Of a stretch of 39,005 nucleotides of DNA, positions 1-11,790 are shown in pieces. The notes beneath the pieces were generated by a model. It was not told where the DNA came from. It saw nothing but the letters and a program-made list of their open reading frames with translations, and made no database searches. This DNA comes from a virus (taxonomy: Duplodnaviria; Heunggongvirae; Uroviricota; Caudoviricetes). The stretch lies in the IMG/VR virus record IMGVR_UViG_2521172734_000002. One strand, 5' to 3'. The stretch's first letter is position 1. Every line of letters begins with the position of its first letter. A program made the position numbers and the translations under genes.

Positions 1-1053
1 TTACGGGGTAATGCCAACCGCTGCCGCCACTTTGTCGCCACTTGGCAGCGTTGCCAGAGGATTGAAACGGAGCGCCGTTTCCAGATGATCCGGTGCCAGA
101 TGTGCGTAACGCATAGTCATTTTTATATCGTGGTGTCCGAGAATTTTTTGTAAGGCCAGAATGTTTCCACCCGACATCATGAAGTGCGCCGCAAACGTAT
201 GGCGCAGAACGTGTGTGAGTTGACCGCGAGGGAGCACGATAGACGTTTTTTCCATCACGGATAAAAATTGAAAATAGCAGTCTGTGAAGAAATTGAACCC
301 ATCAAGCGCCATGATCTCTTCGTAAAGCTCTTTACTGATAGGGATGCTTCTGTTTTTCTTCCCCTTCGTTCTGACAAAGGTAATTCGGTATTTGGTCACC
401 TGTGAGCGAGTAAGATTTACGGCTTCACGCCAGCGTGCGCCTGTGCTTAAGCATATCTTAACTACCAGTGCCAGAATTGGGTCCTGACGTTTGCAATCAG
501 CCAGCAATTCAACAATCTGCTCATGGGTAAGCCATGCCATCTCTTTTTCTGCGATGGTGAATTTTCGCATGTTCTCCAGTGGGTTCGGATACGACCATTC
601 GCCCAGACGGGATAGTTCGCTAAAAACACTACTTAGATAGCTTTGCTCCAGGTTAATGGTGACCGGGCTTGCTCCTTTCTTCCATTTCTCGCTGAAGTAG
701 ATCTCGCCTGTCAGGCGTTTATCTCGATAGTGGGCAAACATTTTAGAGGTGAGATCGGTTGCAAGAGGATTGCCCAGAGCGTCAACCATCAACAGCAATT
801 TGTCATAGACATGCTGCCCAGCTGTCAGAGATTTACCATGTAGTTTGAACCATAGTTCAACCACGTCTTTCAGTGTTCGACGATCCACTGATTCACCCAG
901 CCAGGGCTTTGCTTCGGTTTCTTCCATCGTGTGACGCTCAAAAGCCAGAGCTTCGCCTTTGGTGGCGAATTGTTTACGCACACGACGTCCACTACGTCCG
1001 GCGGGGTAACATTCGCAAAGCCATTTTCCTGTGGTGAGTTTTCGTACTGCCAT
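1..1053 (-). CDS. int: Phage integrase (tyrosine recombinase), P2/186 type
   Basis: 350-aa ORF; C-terminal recombinase signature HVLRHTFA...GHHDIKMTMRYAHL (R-H-R-Y motifs); stop codon at 1-3; putative att core lies inside its 3' end. Confidence 0.9.
   Translation of the reverse strand: MAVRKLTTGKWLCECYPAGRSGRRVRKQFATKGEALAFERHTMEETEAKPWLGESVDRRTLKDVVELWFKLHGKSLTAGQHVYDKLLLMVDALGNPLATDLTSKMFAHYRDKRLTGEIYFSEKWKKGASPVTINLEQSYLSSVFSELSRLGEWSYPNPLENMRKFTIAEKEMAWLTHEQIVELLADCKRQDPILALVVKICLSTGARWREAVNLTRSQVTKYRITFVRTKGKKNRSIPISKELYEEIMALDGFNFFTDCYFQFLSVMEKTSIVLPRGQLTHVLRHTFAAHFMMSGGNILALQKILGHHDIKMTMRYAHLAPDHLETALRFNPLATLPSGDKVAAAVGITP
19..40. repeat. Putative attL core (cgctgccgccactttgtcgcca)
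   Basis: 22-bp direct repeat of 36151-36172 with one mismatch; flanking sequence on both sides is unrelated; positions match the expected prophage ends (int side and ogr side). Confidence 0.55.
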
Positions 1054-1136: not shown

Positions 1137-2813
1137 CTAAGCAACATGCAGTTCATCGTTGGCGGAAGTTGCTGCTTTGCGCTCTTGCTCAATCGCCAGT
1201 GACTCTCTATATTCTTTCGCTTCCGCAAACATTGTCCATTGTGCGTTGATGTTCATATCTTCAATAACAGACTTAATTTCTTTAATATTTACGTTGAAAA
1301 ACTCTTTTCGTGAGTTAATTTTATTGACCTGTTTTTCGTTGAAGACTTTATGCAGATGATTTTCTAATGATGGTGCATCATCACTATAAATCATCGCATG
1401 AACATCGAATGAAAAAGGAACACTAGCATCACCGAGTTCACGAACACGATCAAGTGGTTCAAGGCGGCGTGTCATTCCAATTTTATATACATCTTCGCCA
1501 AATGAGCCAATATTACTAATTATATAAACGTGGCCTGATCTAGTTTGTTGAGCCATAGAAATAGCTCGTTGGTTTTTAGCTTCAGCTTCTTCATATTTTA
1601 ACTGTAGTTCAGCTATTTTTTGCTCTAAAGCTAAGCGTTGTTCTTCATTTGCAAGCATAAGCTCTTTTGTTGCTTTATTTATAGCTTGCTGAATAGCTTT
1701 CTCTTCTTTTTCAGCTTCTTTTATCGCTTTTTCATACTCCCTACGAGCTCTTTCCTCTTCACGAAGTTGTTCTTTAATCCTTCTTTGCTCTTCTTTTTCT
1801 TCGAGCATAATTTCATTAACTGCAACTCCCCATTTTAGCTCGTTGAGTCGAGCTTGAAGATAGATGTCACTTATTTTTGCGGACCTAAAGGCAGAACCAT
1901 TGTAATTTACAAGTTGAAACGCATCTTTTATCTCTTGGGAAAGTTTTCCAAAATTGTTGTGTTTGACTTTTGATAAAATACTGTCAACTCTTCCATTGAA
2001 GGCATCTAAAACAAAGTTGATAGCAGTATTACGCCTGTTTTGTTCAACATAATCACACGAAGCAGCTTTATTAGTTTTTATTAATGATTTTGTTAACTCC
2101 CTGGCTTTTTGTAATTCCTTACCTGCATCTGTAAACTCATAATTTTCTGCCAATTCATCGAGAACGCTACGGTTAGGGATGATCCATTCATCACCATAAC
2201 CTTCAATTTTATTTTTCATTGATTTGGCAACTGCTTCATATTTTTCTGCAAACTCTTTAGCTTCATATGCTGAACCAGCAATCTCTTTTGCTCTTTCTTC
2301 TGCATCGGAAATAATTTTCACTGCATTGTCATTAGCATTTGAGATCAGCTCATTTGCTTTACTATTGGCATTATCAAGACGTTCTTTAGCTTTCAGGCGT
2401 GCATCGCGAGCGTCTTTAGTAATTGCTATAGCTTCGCTATTAGCGTTGCTTATTTTTATCTGAGCTTGATAATTTGCTTCGTTTACTGTCTTAGCAGCCT
2501 TTATTTGGGCTTCTTCTATTTTTTGCCTGGCTATTGAGTCTGCATTTTTTATCTTATTCTCTGCTTCCATCACTGCGCTGTGCAATTCTACGTATTGCCA
2601 TAATGGCGCAGCTCGTCCTTCAAGCTCTGATAGATCTCGTACAGTCTGTGCTAATTCTTCTTGATTTTCTTTCAGTTGGTTGGAAAGGGCTATGTTGTTA
2701 GCTGTCAAGGTATTTATAGCCGCTTTATGTTTTTTGCTTTGCTTAAATAATATTACAGCTAGAATGGGGGCGAGAAATGCTAATAAGAATATAACGATGG
2801 AAAATGAATTCAT
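1137..2813 (-). CDS. Membrane-anchored coiled-coil protein with C-terminal T5orf172 / GIY-YIG-like domain (DUF4041-T5orf172-like architecture); candidate lysogen-expressed defence protein
   Basis: 558-aa ORF; N-terminal hydrophobic helix FSIVIFLLAFLAPILAVILF; long Ala/Lys/Glu-rich region with NANS/NAND repeats; C-terminal GHVYIISN...VYKIGMT...PFSFDVH module; AGGA RBS 7-8 nt upstream; visibly AT-rich; sits between cI and int on the same strand. Confidence 0.8.
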   Translation of the reverse strand: MNSFSIVIFLLAFLAPILAVILFKQSKKHKAAINTLTANNIALSNQLKENQEELAQTVRDLSELEGRAAPLWQYVELHSAVMEAENKIKNADSIARQKIEEAQIKAAKTVNEANYQAQIKISNANSEAIAITKDARDARLKAKERLDNANSKANELISNANDNAVKIISDAEERAKEIAGSAYEAKEFAEKYEAVAKSMKNKIEGYGDEWIIPNRSVLDELAENYEFTDAGKELQKARELTKSLIKTNKAASCDYVEQNRRNTAINFVLDAFNGRVDSILSKVKHNNFGKLSQEIKDAFQLVNYNGSAFRSAKISDIYLQARLNELKWGVAVNEIMLEEKEEQRRIKEQLREEERARREYEKAIKEAEKEEKAIQQAINKATKELMLANEEQRLALEQKIAELQLKYEEAEAKNQRAISMAQQTRSGHVYIISNIGSFGEDVYKIGMTRRLEPLDRVRELGDASVPFSFDVHAMIYSDDAPSLENHLHKVFNEKQVNKINSRKEFFNVNIKEIKSVIEDMNINAQWTMFAEAKEYRESLAIEQERKAATSANDELHVA

Positions 2814-2833: not shown

Positions 2834-3430
2834 TTAATTTGAAACTATTGTACTTCTTATACAAGCAACTACTTCAATATCAGAAAATGCACATTCAAAG
2901 CTATTCTCTGTACTTGTAATTTTAATCATACCTTTTGGAAGCTTTGTGATTTTTCGAATGGAATAGGTTCCGTCGATGTTGATTAACCAGTGCCCATCAA
3001 GTACTTCAGAAAATTTTTGATCACAAATGTATGTGACGAGCCCATCCTGAATAACAATTGGTGATGAAAGATTTGCAGGAAGAAATGATGAATCGAAGAC
3101 ATATGAACCATCTTCAATCATTTTGCCTGCGGTAAGGCGAAACTTGGCAAGCTCTTCTGTAGCTGCTGTCAGCGAGCTTTGCTTAAGGCCTTGCCCGGTG
3201 GTTAACCATTTCAGTGAGGTTCCTGTTTCAAGAGCACATTGGATTATCCAGTCTGCAGGAAACGTATCCCGCAAATACCTGTTCGCCAGAGTGCTTTTTG
3301 ATACTTCCAAGTGATCAGCTAAAGCCTGTCGTGTCGTAAAGCCATAAGCTTCGACTAATCGCTCAATCGCAGCCTTACCACCTTTATTGGGATTTATTTT
3401 GATCTCATTTGGGTACTTTGATGTTGACAT
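2834..3430 (-). CDS. cI: Immunity repressor, phage 186 CI-like
   Basis: 198-aa ORF divergent from the apl/cII operon; N-terminal HTH-like segment (AIERLVEAYGFTTRQALADHLEVSKSTLANR); position between int and the excisionase-like gene. Confidence 0.75.
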   Translation of the reverse strand: MSTSKYPNEIKINPNKGGKAAIERLVEAYGFTTRQALADHLEVSKSTLANRYLRDTFPADWIIQCALETGTSLKWLTTGQGLKQSSLTAATEELAKFRLTAGKMIEDGSYVFDSSFLPANLSSPIVIQDGLVTYICDQKFSEVLDGHWLINIDGTYSIRKITKLPKGMIKITSTENSFECAFSDIEVVACIRSTIVSN

Positions 3431-3525: not shown

Positions 3526-3747
3526 ATGACCCCTAACATTTCAATAACTCTGAATACGCCACATGTCACAATTGAGCGTTATAGCGAACTTACTGGTCTT
3601 TCTATCGACACCATCAACGATATGCTGGCTGATGGTCGCATCCCTCGCCATCGCCTTCGGAAAGACAAGAAAAGAGAAAAGGTAATGATCAACCTTGCTG
3701 CTCTTACCGTTGATGCACTTACTGATTGCAATGTTGTATTCAACTAG
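3526..3747 (+). CDS. apl: Apl/Cox-like excisionase / transcriptional regulator
   Basis: 73-aa ORF from ATG 3526 with AGGAGA RBS at 3511-3516; first gene of the rightward early operon, divergent from cI; small basic protein. Confidence 0.65.
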
Positions 3748-3779: not shown

Positions 3780-4289
3780 ATGTTTGATTACCAAGTTTCC
3801 AAACATCCACATTTTGACGAAGCCTGTCGTGCATTCGCACTGCGCCACAACCTGGTGCAACTGGCAGAACGTGCAGGCATGAATGTACAGATTCTGCGGA
3901 ACAAGCTGAACCCAGCTCAACCTCATTTATTAACCGCACCAGAAATCTGGTTGCTTACCGATCTGACTGAAGATTCAACGCTGGTAGATGGCTTTCTGGC
4001 ACAGATTCACTGCCTGCCATGTGTACCGATTAATGAGGTGGCAAAAGAGAAACTGCCGCATTATGTCATGAGTGCAACCGCAGAGATCGGGCGTGTTGCT
4101 GCAGGTGCGGTATCCGGCGATGTAAAAACCAGTGCAGGTCGTCGTGATGCTATCAGCAGCATTAACTCTGTAACACGGCTGATGGCGCTGGCCGCTGTTT
4201 CATTGCAGGCCCGTTTACAGGCTAATCCTGCGATGGCGAGTGCAGTTGATACCGTTACTGGCCTCGGTGCTTCATTCGGTTTGCTGTGA
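3780..4289 (+). CDS. cII: CII-like lysogeny establishment regulator (186 CII-like)
   Basis: 169-aa ORF from ATG 3780 (the same length I recall for 186 CII); position immediately after apl. Confidence 0.65.
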
Positions 4290-5330: not shown

Positions 5331-6184
5331 GCACCATCTTGAAATGGGCGGGAAATAAAACCGCCGTAATGTCCGAACTGAAAAAACATCTTCCTGCTGG
5401 TCCGCGACTAGTTGAACCTTTCGCGGGTTCCTGTGCTGTGATGATGGAGACGGATTATCCCTGCTATCTGGTTGCGGATATTAATCCTGATTTAATCAAC
5501 CTCTATAAAAAGGTTGCCGCTGATTGTGAATCGTTTATATCTCGCGCCAAAGTTTTATTTGAGATCGCAAACAGGGAGGTGGCTTATTACAACATAAGGC
5601 AGGAGTTTAATTACTCAACTGAAATTACTGATTTCATGAAAGCGGTATATTTCCTGTATCTCAATCGTCACGGTTACCGTGGGTTATGTCGCTATAACAA
5701 GAGCGGGCATTTCAACATTCCCTACGGTAATTATAAAAATCCGTATTTCCCTGAAAAAGAAATTCGCGCTTTTGCAGAAAAAGCCCAGCGAGCAACGTTT
5801 ATCTGCGCCAGCTTTGATGAAACGCTGGCGATGTTGAAGGCGGGGGATGTGGTGTATTGCGATCCGCCTTATGACGGTACGTTTTCCGGCTATCACGCTG
5901 ACGGCTTTACTGAAGATGACCAGTATCACCTGGCATCCGTTCTTGAACATCGGTCATCAGAAGGACATCCGGTCATTGTTTCTAACAGTGACACATCCCT
6001 GATCCGTTCGCTGTATCGCAATTTTACTCACCACTATATCAAGGTAAAACGCAGCATCGGCGTAGCAGCTGGTGAGAGTAAATCAGCAACAGAAATCATT
6101 GCTGTTTCCGGGCCGCGCTGCTGGGTGGGATTTGATTATTCGCGTGGCGTGGATAGTTCTGCCGTGTACGGAGTACGTGCATGA
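5327..6184 (+). CDS. dam: DNA adenine methyltransferase (Dam-like, D12 class N6-MTase), orphan
   Basis: 285 aa from ATG 5327 (GGAGG RBS); N-terminal KWAGNK SAM-binding motif and catalytic DPPY (CDPPYDGTF); no adjacent restriction endonuclease gene. Confidence 0.85.
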
Positions 6185-8595
6185 GCCATGCCGATATGAG
6201 CAACTGCTGCGGCTTTAACGAGGCTGCCGCATCGTTCTCATGGAACAGCCCGAAAAAGGCCATTAACCCTTATCTGGACCCGGCGGAAGTTGCGCCGGTT
6301 TCTGCGCTTTCAAACCTGATCACTCTGTACGCTGCCGATAACGAGCAGGAACAACTGCGCCGCGAGGCACTGAGTGATCAGGTCTGGGAGCGTTATTTCT
6401 TTAATGAATCCCGTGATCCTGTCCAACGCGAAATGGAGCAGGATAAGCTCATTAGCCGGGCAAAGTTGGCGCATGAGCAGCAGCGTTTTAACCCGGACAT
6501 GGTCATTCTGGCAGACGTCAGCGCCCAGCCCTCCCATATCAGCAAGCCGCTGATGCAACGTATTGAATACTTCAGCAGCCTGGGCAGGCCAAAGGCTTAT
6601 TCCCGCTATTTACGTGAGACGATTAAGCCATGTCTGGAACGACTGGAGCATGTACGCGACAGCCAGCTATCTGCATCTTTTCGTTTTATGGCAAGCCATG
6701 TAGGGCTGGACGGCCTGCTGATTCTGCCTGAAATGAGTCAGGATCAGGTGAAACGCCTGTCTACCCTTGTCGCTGCGCATATGAGCATGTGCCTTGATGC
6801 AGCTTGTGGTGATTTGTATGCCACCGATGACGTTAAGCCAGAAGAAATCCGCAAGACATGGGAAAAGGTGGCAGCGGAAACCCTGCGTCTGGATGTCATC
6901 CCGCCTGCGTTTGAGCAACTCCGTCGGAAAAGAAACCGCCGTAAACCCGTGCCCTATGAACTCATTCCGGGTTCGCTGGCGCGTATGTTGTGCGCCGACT
7001 GGTGGTACCGGAAATTATGGAAAATGCGTTGCGAATGGCGGGAAGAGCAGTTGCGTGCTGTCTGCCTGGTCAGCAAAAAAGCATCTCCCTATGTCAGCTA
7101 TGAAGCCGTGATGCATAAACGTGAGCAGCGCCGCAAGTCACTGGAGTTTTTCCGTTCTCATGAACTGGTGAACGAAGAGGGCGACACGCTGGATATGGAA
7201 GACGTGGTAAACGCCAGCAGCAGCAACCCGGCGCACCGCCGCAATGAGATGATGGCCTGTGTTAAAGGTCTGGAGCTTATCGCGGAAATGCGCGGTGACT
7301 GCGCCGTTTTCTACACCATTACCTGTCCGTCACGTTTCCATTCCACGCTCAATAACGGCAGACCAAACCCAACCTGGACAAATGCGACGGTAAGACAAAG
7401 CAGCGATTATCTGGTCGGCATGTTTGCTGCATTTCGTAAGGCGATGCACAAAGCCGGGTTGCGCTGGTATGGCGTGCGGGTGGCTGAGCCGCATCATGAC
7501 GGTACAGTTCACTGGCACCTGTTGTGTTTCATGCGCAAAAAAGACCGCCGCGCCATTACTGCATTGTTGCGTAAGTTTGCCATCCGTGAAGACCGCGAGG
7601 AACTGGGTAATAACACTGGTCCACGCTTTAAATCTGAGCTGATAAACCCGCGCAAAGGAACGCCGACAAGCTACATCGCGAAATACATCAGTAAGAACAT
7701 TGACGGGCGTGGTCTGGCTGGCGAGATCAGCAAGGAAACGGGTAAATCCCTGCGTGATAACGCTGAATACGTTAATGCCTGGGCGTCTCTGCATCGTGTT
7801 CAGCAATTCCGCTTCTTTGGTATTCCGGGACGTCAGGCTTACCGTGAACTTCGCTTGCTGGCTGGTCAGGCGGCAAGGCAACAGGGTGACAAAAAAGCAG
7901 GTGCGCCGGTACTGGATAACCCGCGTCTTGATGCCATTCTGGCTGCTGCTGATGCTGGTTGTTTTGCCACCTACATCATGAAGCAGGGCGGCGTACTGGT
8001 TCCCCGCAAATATCACCTCATCAGAACCGCTTATGAAATCAACGAAGAGCCAACCGCCTATGGCGATCACGGTATTCGTATTTATGGCATCTGGTCACCC
8101 ATTGCAGAGGGCAAGATCTGCACTCATGCAGTGAAGTGGAAAATGGTTCGTAAGGCCGTTGACGTTCAGGAGGCGGCAGCCGACCAGGGCGCTTGCGCCC
8201 CTTGGACTCGTGGCAATAACTGTCCCCTTGCTGAAAATTTGAACCAACAAGGGAAAGACAAATCAGCTGATGGGGATACCAGAACGGACATTACCCGCAT
8301 GGATGACAAGGAGTTGCACGAATACCTGCACAGTATGAGCAAAAAAGAGCGCCGGGAACTGGCTGCAAGGTTACGCCTGGTGAAACCGAAACGGCGTAAA
8401 GACTACAAACAGCGAATTACAGACCATCAGCGACAGCAGCTCGTCTATGAACTGAAGTCCAGAGGATTTGATGGCAGCGAGAAAGAGGTCGATTTACTCC
8501 TTCGCGGCGGCAGTATTCCGTCAGGAGCAGGCCTGCGTATCTTCTATCGGAACCAGCGTTTGCAGGAAGATGATAAGTGGCGGAACCTGTATTAA
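6181..8595 (+). CDS. A: Replication initiation protein A (rolling-circle nickase, P2 gpA-like)
   Basis: 804-aa ORF; His-hydrophobic-His motif (TVHWHLLCF) and paired active-site tyrosines (SYIAKYISK); ATGA overlap with the dam stop. Confidence 0.9.
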
Positions 8596-8687
8596 TTACG
8601 CGGGTTAACAATTCGTGCTCTTAATAATACCAGGCATTTCAGGCTGATGAACGTAAAAAAACGTTTTACATCAGTAAGATTATTATA

Positions 8688-8707
8688 TACTGTAAATATA
8701 AACAGTG
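8688..8707 (+). promoter_or_regulatory. LexA (SOS) box overlapping a promoter
   Basis: TACTGTaaatataaACAGTG fits the CTGT-N8-ACAG consensus; about 40 bp upstream of the 8748 ORF; an adjacent TATATACAGTA half-site follows. Confidence 0.6.
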
Positions 8708-8747
8708 GTTATATATACAGTATTACTTTGGTGTCATAGGAGGAAAG

Positions 8748-8936
8748 ATGCAGGACTATTTTTTGGAGTCTTTGAAGCTCCAGCGCATTGATTTTTTTCT
8801 TAAGCTTGTAGCGGCTAGTGAGTGTAGTGATGAAGAGAAGGGGCTGGCTCTGCAGTGGGTTTCTGAATTGACTGATGAACTCATGGCAAAAATCAGAACC
8901 CACGAATACAACCGCTCAATGGATGTCATCAGCTGA
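8748..8936 (+). CDS. Small SOS-controlled protein; possible Tum-like antirepressor N-terminal module
   Basis: 62-aa ORF with strong AGGAGG RBS 5 nt upstream; directly downstream of the LexA box; directly upstream of the DinI-like gene. Confidence 0.45.
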   Translation: MQDYFLESLKLQRIDFFLKLVAASECSDEEKGLALQWVSELTDELMAKIRTHEYNRSMDVIS

Positions 8937-8946
8937 GGTGACCTTT

Positions 8947-9180
8947 ATGCGCATTGAAATAATGATCGATAAAGAGCAGAAGATTAGCCAGTCTACCCTG
9001 GACGCCCTTGAATCCGAGCTTTACCGCAATCTGCGCCCCCTGTATCCCAAAATGGTAATTCGCATCCGCAAAGGTAGCTCTAACGGTGTGGAACTGACCG
9101 GACTGCAACTGGACGAAGAAAGAAAACAAGTGATGAAGATTATGCAGAAGGTGTGGGAAGACGACAGCTGGCTGCATTAA
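8947..9180 (+). CDS. DinI-family protein
   Basis: 77-aa ORF starting MRIEIMIDKEQ... and ending ...WEDDSWLH, resembling E. coli DinI in length and termini. Confidence 0.7.
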   Translation: MRIEIMIDKEQKISQSTLDALESELYRNLRPLYPKMVIRIRKGSSNGVELTGLQLDEERKQVMKIMQKVWEDDSWLH

Positions 9181-9339
9181 GAAAAGTTGCTGGCGTCTGA
9201 ACTTGATTCTGGCGTCAGCAAGGTTGAACAACGAGTACAGTGAGGCGTTAGGTGTGGCGTTTATTTGATGAGTGAACGCCCGTTCTGCGACAGGTTCGGA
9301 GATTAAGGTTGAAACTACGGGCAAAATACCATCTTTTTC

Positions 9340-9765
9340 CTACTTAATTGAGTCCAGTAACAAGTTACAGTTACTCTCATTGTAGAGAGAACGAGCAATT
9401 AGTGTTACCTGCTTTCCATTCATTCCCGGCTTATCCCATAACACAGCTTCTTGCGACGCCACAAATTCAGCATAATCAATTATGCGTTGTTCGTGATCTG
9501 GTTCCTCATAGCCAAAGTATGAGAGCGCATCGTTGTAAGCGTGGTAAGCTGCTTTCTGTAATATCTTGATATCGGCTGTAGGTACTTGCTCCGTGTAGCT
9601 AGGATCTAATTGTGTGCTACTGCCATAGAATGCACATGAAAGGTAAGATATTGATTTCTGTTGAGCTTTAGTTCCTTTCTCATAGTTTTTAGCTGTTACC
9701 GCCTGAACTGGGACGCTAACAAAGCTTGCAACCAGAATTAAAATTAATACGTAAAAGCTTTTCAT
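9340..9765 (-). CDS. Secreted/periplasmic protein of unknown function (cargo)
   Basis: 141-aa ORF with a classic signal peptide (MKSFYVLILILVASFVSVPVQA|VT); AT-rich; opposite strand to surrounding phage genes. Confidence 0.6.
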   Translation of the reverse strand: MKSFYVLILILVASFVSVPVQAVTAKNYEKGTKAQQKSISYLSCAFYGSSTQLDPSYTEQVPTADIKILQKAAYHAYNDALSYFGYEEPDHEQRIIDYAEFVASQEAVLWDKPGMNGKQVTLIARSLYNESNCNLLLDSIK

Positions 9766-10038
9766 TTTGACCTCAGCCGAAACGTTAGAGAGACTATCGA
9801 AATTTGTAAAACCCGTGGCGATTCAGTTTGAGATCCTCCCCCTTACATGATTTTTAATCAAATATATGCTTTTGTAAGCATACCTGTTAACCGAATTATT
9901 TATTTTTAGAGATCTTCCGACATACTGATTATGCCCGCTGAGGAGTTCACCTTGCGTAAGGTCCGATTCGCTTTACTCGTCTGTGAATGTCTATGCTGCA
10001 TGAGATTGCATGATCGTTTGAGGATCGTTTTTGCTAAG

Positions 10039-10253: not shown

Positions 10254-10823
10254 ATGATGGGGCCAATCAAAATTTACTCTTGCGGTACATATCATCCTTG
10301 GCGATATCGAGGAGAGCGAAATCCTCGTTCCGGGGATAGACTTTCAAAGGCAATGATGGATTTGAAGGACGCTTCAAATTCCGGGTATGCAAAGGCTGTT
10401 AATATTTTTACCCAACTTTTAACTTCTAGCCTCCAAAGCTATGTGATTGGTAGGGTTGCTTTTACCGACGTGCCCTTTGAGATAACAATTGTTCCTTCTC
10501 ATGCTGAGGGAAAAGTATCTCAAGCTTTAATAAAAATAGCGCAAGATATTGCGAAAAAATTTCCTAATGCTGTATATAACCAATCATTACAGAGAAAAAC
10601 AACAGTAGTGAGTGCTCATAAGGGGGGCGGAGATCGTTCTGTCGAACATCATATGTCAACAATCGGAGTTACATCCAATGTGGCTGATAAGGTTATTCTC
10701 CTTATTGATGATGTTACTACAACTGGGGGGAGTATGACGGCGTGCTATTATCTGTTAAGATATGCAGGCGCAAAGACAATATTGCCACTGGCGTTACTAG
10801 AAACAGCTAATTATGAGGAGTGA
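10254..10823 (+). CDS. Phosphoribosyltransferase (PRTase)-domain protein, ShosT-like candidate toxin/effector
   Basis: 189-aa ORF with type-I PRTase PRPP-binding motif VILLIDDVTTTGGSM; stop overlaps the start of the DprA-like gene; AT-rich. Confidence 0.65.
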   Translation: MMGPIKIYSCGTYHPWRYRGERNPRSGDRLSKAMMDLKDASNSGYAKAVNIFTQLLTSSLQSYVIGRVAFTDVPFEITIVPSHAEGKVSQALIKIAQDIAKKFPNAVYNQSLQRKTTVVSAHKGGGDRSVEHHMSTIGVTSNVADKVILLIDDVTTTGGSMTACYYLLRYAGAKTILPLALLETANYEE

Positions 10824-11790
10824 AATAATGCACCCTTCCCAATTCAAAATATTGTTAGGTCTATCGGTACAGGTTGATAGACTTGCATCAGAACAAGGGT
10901 TGCTTAAATTATTTAACGATATTCCATTCCATATTATTTCCGATGAATATGAATTGGTTGAGTGTGTTAATTCAGCCGGGATTTTAAAATCCACCTTTTC
11001 TATAGCGTCATTGCATAATGCTGAAGACTATTTGAGCAAGCATTTGTCATTGGGGATTGTTCCAATTCCTTTTGGAGATGCTAAATACCCTATTTGTTTA
11101 GCAATTACGCCAAATCCCCCAGCAATGTTATATTTGAAGGGGGACGTAAATATTCTTAGTGAGATGCCAGGAGTTGCAATTGTTGGTTCTCGTGAAGTTT
11201 CTATGGCAGGGGAAGAAATTACGAAGAGAATTACCACGAAAATCTGTGAAAGAGGTGTGGTGATTGTAAGCGGCCTAGCTATTGGTACTGATACAAATGC
11301 ACACAAGGCAACTCTTAAGGCAGGTGCTAAAACAATTGCTGTATTAGCTCATGGTTTAGAGAGCGCTAAGCCTAAACAAAATGCTAGATTAGCAAATGAA
11401 ATTTTATCTAACGGTGGGGCTTGGATTTCTGAGTATCCTGTAGGGAGGCCTGCATTCAAGCAGTCATTTGTGCAACGCAACAGAATCCAGGTAGGTTTAT
11501 CAGCAGTTTCGATACTAATCGAAGCAGCAAAAAATAGTGGGACAATGACGCAGGCGGATTTTGCTATTAAAGCGGCAAGACCTATTTTTGCTGTTGTACC
11601 GCATAAGGCTGATAATCCACTGGGACTTAATTGCGAAGGAACTCAACAACTTGTTGATAATGAATTGGCTAATCCCTTGCGCACTAGTCAAGACTATGAT
11701 TCACTGATGAATGTAATATCTGAGTCAATAAGCAAAATTAAGATAAATTCTGATATTTATAGATCTAATATGAGTCACTTTCTGATTTAG
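10813..11790 (+). CDS. DprA/Smf-like (SLOG/Rossmann) protein, ShosA-like candidate partner
   Basis: DprA-type motif VGSREVS...VIVSGLAIGTDTNAHKATLKAGAKTIAVLAHGLE; likely true start ATG 10828 after AGGAG (10817-10821). Confidence 0.7.
   Translation: MRSEIMHPSQFKILLGLSVQVDRLASEQGLLKLFNDIPFHIISDEYELVECVNSAGILKSTFSIASLHNAEDYLSKHLSLGIVPIPFGDAKYPICLAITPNPPAMLYLKGDVNILSEMPGVAIVGSREVSMAGEEITKRITTKICERGVVIVSGLAIGTDTNAHKATLKAGAKTIAVLAHGLESAKPKQNARLANEILSNGGAWISEYPVGRPAFKQSFVQRNRIQVGLSAVSILIEAAKNSGTMTQADFAIKAARPIFAVVPHKADNPLGLNCEGTQQLVDNELANPLRTSQDYDSLMNVISESISKIKINSDIYRSNMSHFLI

Follow-up and report, generated by a model that had tools for sequence, protein, structure and literature searches.

A probable SOS induction operon with separate tum-like and dinI-like genes behind a putative double LexA operator in a Fels-2/DuoHS-type P2-like prophage

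The window, by which we mean the whole 39,005-nt stretch of DNA that was analysed, is a P2/186/Fels-2-like prophage. We estimate at about 0.9 the probability that the region immediately downstream of its replication gene A serves a P2-like prophage of the Fels-2/DuoHS type as its SOS induction operon, comprising a LexA-silenced tum antirepressor gene whose product acts on the CI repressor and a gene for a DinI-like protein. Split tum/dinI SOS operons are already known from the literature, from the annotated PSP3 record and from genetic validation of a near-identical copy; the small points that remain are the double operator of colicin type, how rare the fused form is, a hint that the CI N-terminal domain is targeted, and the missing annotation of a very common gene. 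The features on which the argument rests are as follows.

2834..3430, minus strand: immunity repressor CI of the 186 type, on which the antirepressor presumably acts (33% identity to 186 CI, E = 4e-35)
8665..8670, plus strand: putative −35 hexamer TTTACA of the SOS promoter, equivalent to 186 p95 (5/6 matches to TTGACA)
8688..8693, plus strand: probable −10 hexamer TACTGT, 17 nt past the −35 hexamer and identical with the first six nucleotides of LexA box 1
8688..8707, unstranded: putative LexA box 1, TACTGTAAATATAAACAGTG (17/20 matches to consensus, conserved in all relatives examined)
8703..8722, unstranded: putative LexA box 2, CAGTGGTTATATATACAGTA (16/20 matches to consensus, offset by 15 nt from box 1 and overlapping it by 5 nt)
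8738..8743, plus strand: AGGAGG, the ribosome-binding site (RBS) for the tum-like gene, separated by 4 nt from the ATG at 8748 (unchanged across a six-phage alignment)
8748..8936, plus strand: tum/tumA-like antirepressor gene of 62 codons with a TGA stop (phrog_698; linked by profile to the N-terminal half of 186 Tum)
8935..8941, plus strand: Shine-Dalgarno-like GAGGTGA for the dinI-like gene, read from the sequence and overlapping the tum stop codon
8947..9180, plus strand: dinI-like/tumB-like gene of 77 codons with an ATG at 8947, in the +1 frame (Pfam DinI)
9187..9221, plus strand: stem-loop directly past the dinI-like stop codon (inverted repeat with 15-nt arms)

We propose that in an undamaged lysogen two LexA dimers would occupy two overlapping SOS boxes spanning the −10 element and the start region of the promoter that follows gene A, which would keep the operon silent; direct binding of LexA at this site is something we infer. 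Upon DNA damage, active RecA would stimulate self-cleavage of LexA and the operon would be transcribed and yield two separate proteins. One of them, a helical hairpin of 62 residues with homology to PSP3 TumA and to the N-terminal half of 186 Tum, would then act as an antirepressor: it would bind the CI protein, which does not cleave itself, and take it off its operators so that the lytic promoter fires. The DinI-family protein, a homologue of the C-terminal half of 186 Tum and of PSP3 TumB, would tune the SOS response and would not be needed for induction.

The order of genes along the prophage map is integrase (1-1053, minus strand), CI (2834-3430, minus strand), an Apl-like ORF (3526-3747), CII (3780-4289), a Dam-like methylase, replication protein A (6181-8595; Phage_GPA, E = 2e-127), the SOS operon, cargo genes, and then portal and terminase genes on the minus strand. 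The operon thus lies downstream of gene A in a phage with a 186-type CI, and this context is the same in all loci examined. A sequence-only reading of this DNA had described a near-consensus LexA box just upstream of a 62-aa ORF (hereafter ORF62) with a perfect AGGAGG RBS, followed 10 nt later in another frame by a DinI-family gene, and we recovered every one of these elements at the positions listed above (box 8688-8707, RBS 8738-8743, DinI-family gene 8947-9180).

A generic σ70 consensus scan did not report the SOS promoter, because its −10 hexamer matches the consensus at only 3/6 positions. The layout nevertheless matches that of the 186 p95 record, where the −10 is also TACTGT and coincides with the first six nucleotides of the LexA site, such that the candidate LexA operator appears to overlap the promoter as in Tum/TumA-type systems. 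Four blocks do not vary in the six-phage alignment, namely the −35 TTTACA, both LexA boxes and the RBS, and the spacers between them do; the 17-nt spacer of the promoter changes in sequence and stays constant in length.

For LexA sites we used the 20-mer consensus TACTGTATATATATACAGTA and allowed at most 3 mismatches. At this threshold the window contains a single match to the full 20-mer, and 100 shuffles yield none. The loose motif CTGT-N8-ACAG, with one occurrence in the 39 kb, would count for little alone because 0.53 occurrences are expected by chance (42 of 100 shuffles have at least one). The stronger argument for the putative LexA box is conservation across relatives: in each of the 18 family members examined from other sources the start codon is preceded, at −39 to −46, by a LexA box with diverged flanks. 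These members comprise 11 related phages, which span Fels-2 to 186, PSP3 and Yersinia and Cronobacter phages, six distant metagenomic members (five distinct genes) and the E. coli HS prophage DuoHS.

The sequence-only reading did not include the overlapping second LexA site predicted at 8703-8722. Box 1 ends in G and not in the consensus A because box 2 overlaps there, and together the two candidate boxes have the form of a colicin-type double SOS operator, i.e. two overlapping 20-nt boxes at a fixed offset, here 15 nt. The double box is kept in Fels-2, DuoHS, SopEPhi, MLG42, ST437phi4.1, ST13phi12.1 and 500465-1; in 186, PSP3, ESSI-2, ev040 and Yen06.16-2, box 2 was not found and only one LexA box is present. 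The 51-nt operator region, used as a query, matched 977 plasmid records, mostly from plasmids predicted to be mobilizable; in the two of the 977 records that were inspected, the match (86-88% identity over 42 nt) lies directly ahead of a bacteriocin gene, colicin E1 cea in one and a klebicin gene in the other. Both of these genes carry two overlapping 20-nt LexA boxes at the identical 15-nt offset, and their box 2 (CAGTGGTTATAT[A/G]TACAGTA) is almost identical to that in the window. Colicin operators bind two LexA dimers and are very tightly repressed (PMC2994835). The arrangements differ in that the colicin operator drives a bacteriocin gene and the one in the window a prophage antirepressor gene, and in that the ColE1 boxes lie downstream of the −10 hexamer whereas in the window the probable −10 lies inside box 1. 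The likeness of the operators might reflect either common ancestry or convergence imposed by the demands of LexA binding.

ORF62 is a divergent homologue of the Tum antirepressor module. BLASTP gave no alignment between ORF62 and 186 Tum at E ≤ 100, and profile methods were therefore required. ORF62 belongs to phrog_698 ("unknown function"; E = 3.6e-38), and the N-terminal half of 186 Tum (its first 70 residues, approximately 20% identical to ORF62) matches the same profile at E = 6.7e-6, with residues 7-44 on profile positions 7-44, in register. The two proteins also share matches to phrog_8554 (E = 2.4e-8 and 3.3e-12) and phrog_1993 (E = 0.0022 and 2e-23). Purpose-built alignments of ORF62 and Tum compared with hhalign aligned residues 4-43 to 4-43 at E = 0.0018, with a probability of only 15% because both alignments hold little diversity. 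The joint ORF62/Tum alignment is gapless, with M1, E7, R13, L20 and A34 invariant and C26 and E40 nearly so. AlphaFold2 predicts ORF62 to be a helical hairpin (helices at 2-23 and 28-61, pLDDT 90.5) and a stand-alone 186-type Tum to form helices at 7-23 and 28-48 (pLDDT 77), and the two predicted hairpins would turn at the same place, residues 24-27.

Other searches with ORF62 gave no match: there is no Pfam family for it, and a sequence search of the PDB with the profile of its family returned nothing at E ≤ 10. Foldseek comparison of the ORF62 model with the PDB and BFVD returned generic helical hairpins only, none at E ≤ 0.001, a result that is uninformative because ORF62 is a two-helix protein. 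At closer range, ORF62 is identical at 61 of 62 residues to ECHS_RS04495 of E. coli HS (the tum gene of DuoHS) and 98.4% identical to STM2728 of Fels-2.

The downstream gene product aligns with residues 71-145 of 186 Tum at 40% identity (E = 2e-23), in agreement with the DinI-like C-terminal half of 186 Tum named in the sequence-only reading. In the alignment to 186 Tum that had been proposed for both ORFs, the DinI-like ORF aligned directly, and ORF62 failed to align by BLASTP and did so by profile. The DinI-like ORF matches the full length of the Pfam DinI profile (PF06183, positions 1-63 of 63) at E = 5.4e-23 and 81.5 bits, above the curated cut-off of 24.2, and matches the E. coli DinI structure 1ghh over residues 1-75 (E = 4.3e-6). 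It is identical to the DuoHS copy at 76 of 77 residues and close to PSP3 TumB. Family membership suggests that it probably acts on RecA filaments and tunes the SOS signal, although the exact role of DinI has been called elusive even for the host protein. The partner looks dispensable, because four relatives (Yen06.16-2, ev040, ESSI-2 and L018) have a tum-like gene and LexA box without any dinI and because in phage 500465-1 a 1-nt deletion ends the dinI-like reading frame after codon 4 (at about 914-930 of the locus).

The CI protein was described in the sequence-only reading as 186-type, and its resemblance to 186 CI agrees with that description, as do its domains, Phage_CI_repr and Phage_CI_C (Pfam, E ≤ 0.01). 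At the same threshold it has no Peptidase_S24 match, and it does not belong with the lambda-type RecA-cleavable repressors, which have the LexA/S24 peptidase fold. Since CI lacks the S24 autocleavage domain, an antirepressor route is expected, and this, together with the profile homology between ORF62 and Tum, supports the earlier suggestion that SOS induction proceeds through an antirepressor rather than through RecA-mediated cleavage. That CI is the target of ORF62 is presumed from the biochemistry of 186 and the genetics of DuoHS. According to the summary in PMC3121763 of Shearwin 1998, 186 Tum binds CI and blocks its binding to operators.

Among phages with ORF62 at least 98% identical, CI is only 38-50% identical overall to that of the window, a divergence that is unexpected for a strictly specific partner. 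This divergence is unevenly distributed along CI. Phages with identical or near-identical Tum have CI N-terminal DNA-binding domains that are 70-81% identical and C-terminal domains that are 26-37% identical, and even where ORF62 is 100% identical the C-terminal domains are only 33-37% identical. Wherever TumA identity reaches 89% or more, the N-terminal domain stays at 70-81%, compared with 44% for 186 and PSP3. The Spearman correlation between TumA identity and CI identity is 0.88 for the N-terminal domain and 0.28 for the C-terminal domain, values that come from non-independent pairs of related phages and are to be read as a hint. The concentration of CI divergence in the C-terminal domain suggests that the antirepressor might read the N-terminal domain. 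We consider it possible, if on balance doubtful, that Tum of the Fels-2/DuoHS type reads the N-terminal domain of CI and not the C-terminal oligomerisation domain, that a single antirepressor acting across CI types could then induce several P2-like prophages, and that the double operator could raise the damage threshold for induction relative to the single box of 186 and PSP3. Some E. coli genomes carry up to three copies of the module.

The closest characterised relative is DuoHS of E. coli HS, in which mitomycin C no longer causes induction and lysis once tum (ECHS_RS04495) is deleted in frame or LexA is made non-cleavable by lexA(Ind-) (PMC12055606, Nat Microbiol 2025). At that locus the 62-aa gene follows gene A and lies 10 nt ahead of a DinI-like gene. 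DuoHS and Fels-2 have in common with the window the promoter, the double LexA operator, the RBS, the 10-nt junction and the place after gene A, and the DuoHS operator differs from that of the window by 1 nt, in box 2. The CI proteins differ more, with that of DuoHS only 55% and that of the Fels-2 relative RE2010 approximately 44% identical to CI in the window, as does the downstream cargo, which in the window is a 141-aa secreted-looking ORF plus a Shosta pair and in Fels-2 is STM2726, an ORF of the same 732-nt size as 186 orf97. In Fels-2, the mutagen MX elicits a response of the operon STM2726-2728 in which STM2727 increases 5.5- to 14.8-fold (PMC2225428). The tum split in Fels-2 and PSP3 was described by Lemire et al. 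2011 (PMC3121763), who for Fels-2 cite Bunny et al. 2002 as the primary source. The STM2728 mRNA (locus 4001-4189) was reported as a possible target of the small RNA SroC (Miyakoshi et al. 2015, PMC4474525), which, if true, would add a post-transcriptional layer to tum expression.

The PSP3 record names two genes, tumA ("similar to 5' end 186 tum; UV induction of prophage") and tumB ("similar to dinI and 3' end of 186 tum"), which like those in the window follow gene A behind a LexA box and of which TumB is close to the DinI-like protein. PSP3 differs from the window in that TumA is only approximately 18% identical to ORF62 across the conserved core, in having a single LexA box, and in having both genes in the same frame with a 3-nt gap. 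Phage 186 shares with the window a LexA-repressed promoter with the −10 inside the box, an antirepressor module (N-terminal in Tum) and a DinI module (C-terminal in Tum), a 186-type CI and a place downstream of gene A, but Tum joins both modules in one polypeptide, the promoter has only one LexA box, and the operon continues with orf97. The dinI-gfoA/gftA operons of Gifsy-1 and Gifsy-3 are likewise LexA-repressed and combine a DinI homologue with a small antirepressor that acts on a non-cleavable repressor (PMC3121763), but their order is reversed, with dinI first, and their repressor belongs to a different family.

Three alternatives to the proposed operon bear weighing, of which one concerns the integrity of the module. 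The sequence-only reading had cast the two ORFs as a split Tum, produced naturally or by a frameshift. If they were a recently broken fused tum, disrupted by a frameshift or nonsense mutation, the module might be defective, and there is precedent for fusion in 186 Tum, a single 146-aa protein with both halves; in MLG42 and PSP3, moreover, the two ORFs share a frame and are parted only by a stop codon and a few bases. The evidence already contradicts this explanation, which we find hardly credible. Both genes have been under strong purifying selection across saturating synonymous divergence, with dN/dS, in comparisons with Fels-2, SopEPhi, ST13phi12.1, ST437phi4.1 and MLG42, of 0.06-0.08 for the tum-like gene and 0.05-0.08 for the dinI-like gene, and dS up to approximately 1. 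The junction, a 10-nt gap in the window, ranges in relatives from 3 to 12 nt with all three frame offsets and all of TGA, TAA and TAG in use, and each has its own purine-rich, RBS-like stretch. When 1.84 billion cluster representatives were searched with the family profile, 156 clusters of the family emerged, and among the best 150 of these a DinI domain is present in only three (two of them truncated) and 147 are stand-alone; this census comes from the search of representatives, and the intact 146-aa Tum is not among the best 120 homologues listed for the Tum N-terminal half. The two-gene form is also present in 1125 of 5426 complete E. coli genomes, and the two-gene DuoHS prophage is inducible in a tum-dependent manner. 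The two-gene split is therefore natural and not the result of a frameshift, and the fused 186 Tum is the unusual state. The earlier idea of a split Tum thus stands as regards two separate, naturally split ORFs, but its framing has to be reversed, since stand-alone proteins are common and the 186 fusion is rare.

The other two alternatives concern which protein induces the prophage and how. ORF62 might be an SOS-induced small protein that induces indirectly, e.g. via Apl, CII or a host factor, as could be read from the pairing of an identical ORF62 with CI proteins of several types and from the DuoHS paper, which states that Tum inhibits "pro-lysogenic regulators" and nothing more specific (PMC12055606). 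This is improbable given that ORF62 is homologous to the half of Tum that carries the antirepressor and that Tum, in the summary of PMC3121763, binds CI itself, and given that the type of ORF62 tracks the CI N-terminal domain. Still less probable, in our estimation, is that the DinI-like protein is the effective inducer or that both proteins are needed as a non-covalent Tum. The tight linkage of the two genes would fit such a role, as would the union of both halves in one polypeptide in 186, whose shorter C-terminal products "modulate SOS induction". However, the deletion that ends DuoHS induction removes the 62-aa gene alone, tum-like genes with a LexA box persist in the four relatives without dinI and in 500465-1 with its interrupted copy, and dinI deletions in Gifsy prophages are reported in the literature to have no effect on induction. 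In PSP3, too, antirepressor activity was assigned to the upstream gene by a personal communication cited in PMC3121763. We therefore retain the reading of ORF62 as the antirepressor, with CI as its presumed direct target.

Downstream of the operon, the stem-loop at 9187-9221 has a predicted folding energy of −18.6 kcal/mol (z = −2.0) and is followed by no U tract. It is possibly the end of the operon or an mRNA-stabilising hairpin, for either of which the evidence is weak; a terminator scan found no intrinsic terminator, and Rfam gave no match in 8500-9900. An ORF of 141 aa on the minus strand (9340-9765) converges on the SOS operon. Its N-terminus resembles a signal peptide (MKSFYVLILILVASFVSVPVQA), and it belongs to phrog_7437 (unknown function) with no Pfam or PADLOC match.

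Roughly one in five complete E. coli genomes carries the tum/dinI module, among them those of BL21(DE3), E. coli C and ATCC 8739, and its E. coli copies are always annotated as "hypothetical protein" and "DinI-like family protein". The 62-aa gene is labelled "hypothetical protein" in RefSeq, "unknown function" in PHROGs and "levan regulatory protein" in some records. Given that published genetics exist on a copy identical at 61 of 62 residues, this annotation could be corrected.

The presence of the module predicts that the prophage should be SOS-inducible, which is relevant because the prophage carries two anti-phage defence systems, PD-Lambda-1 and Shosta. Between the integrase and cI genes (1137-2813, minus strand) lies a gene for a 558-aa protein with DUF4041 and T5orf172/MUG113 domains, for which PADLOC gives a match to the defence protein of PD-Lambda-1 (E = 4.7e-120). 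In the cargo slot, which separates the SOS operon from the portal gene, a phosphoribosyltransferase-like gene (10254-10823, plus strand) matches ShosT at E = 2.7e-18 and a DprA-like gene (10813-11790, plus strand) matches ShosA at E = 1.4e-69, and the two together constitute the Shosta defence pair.
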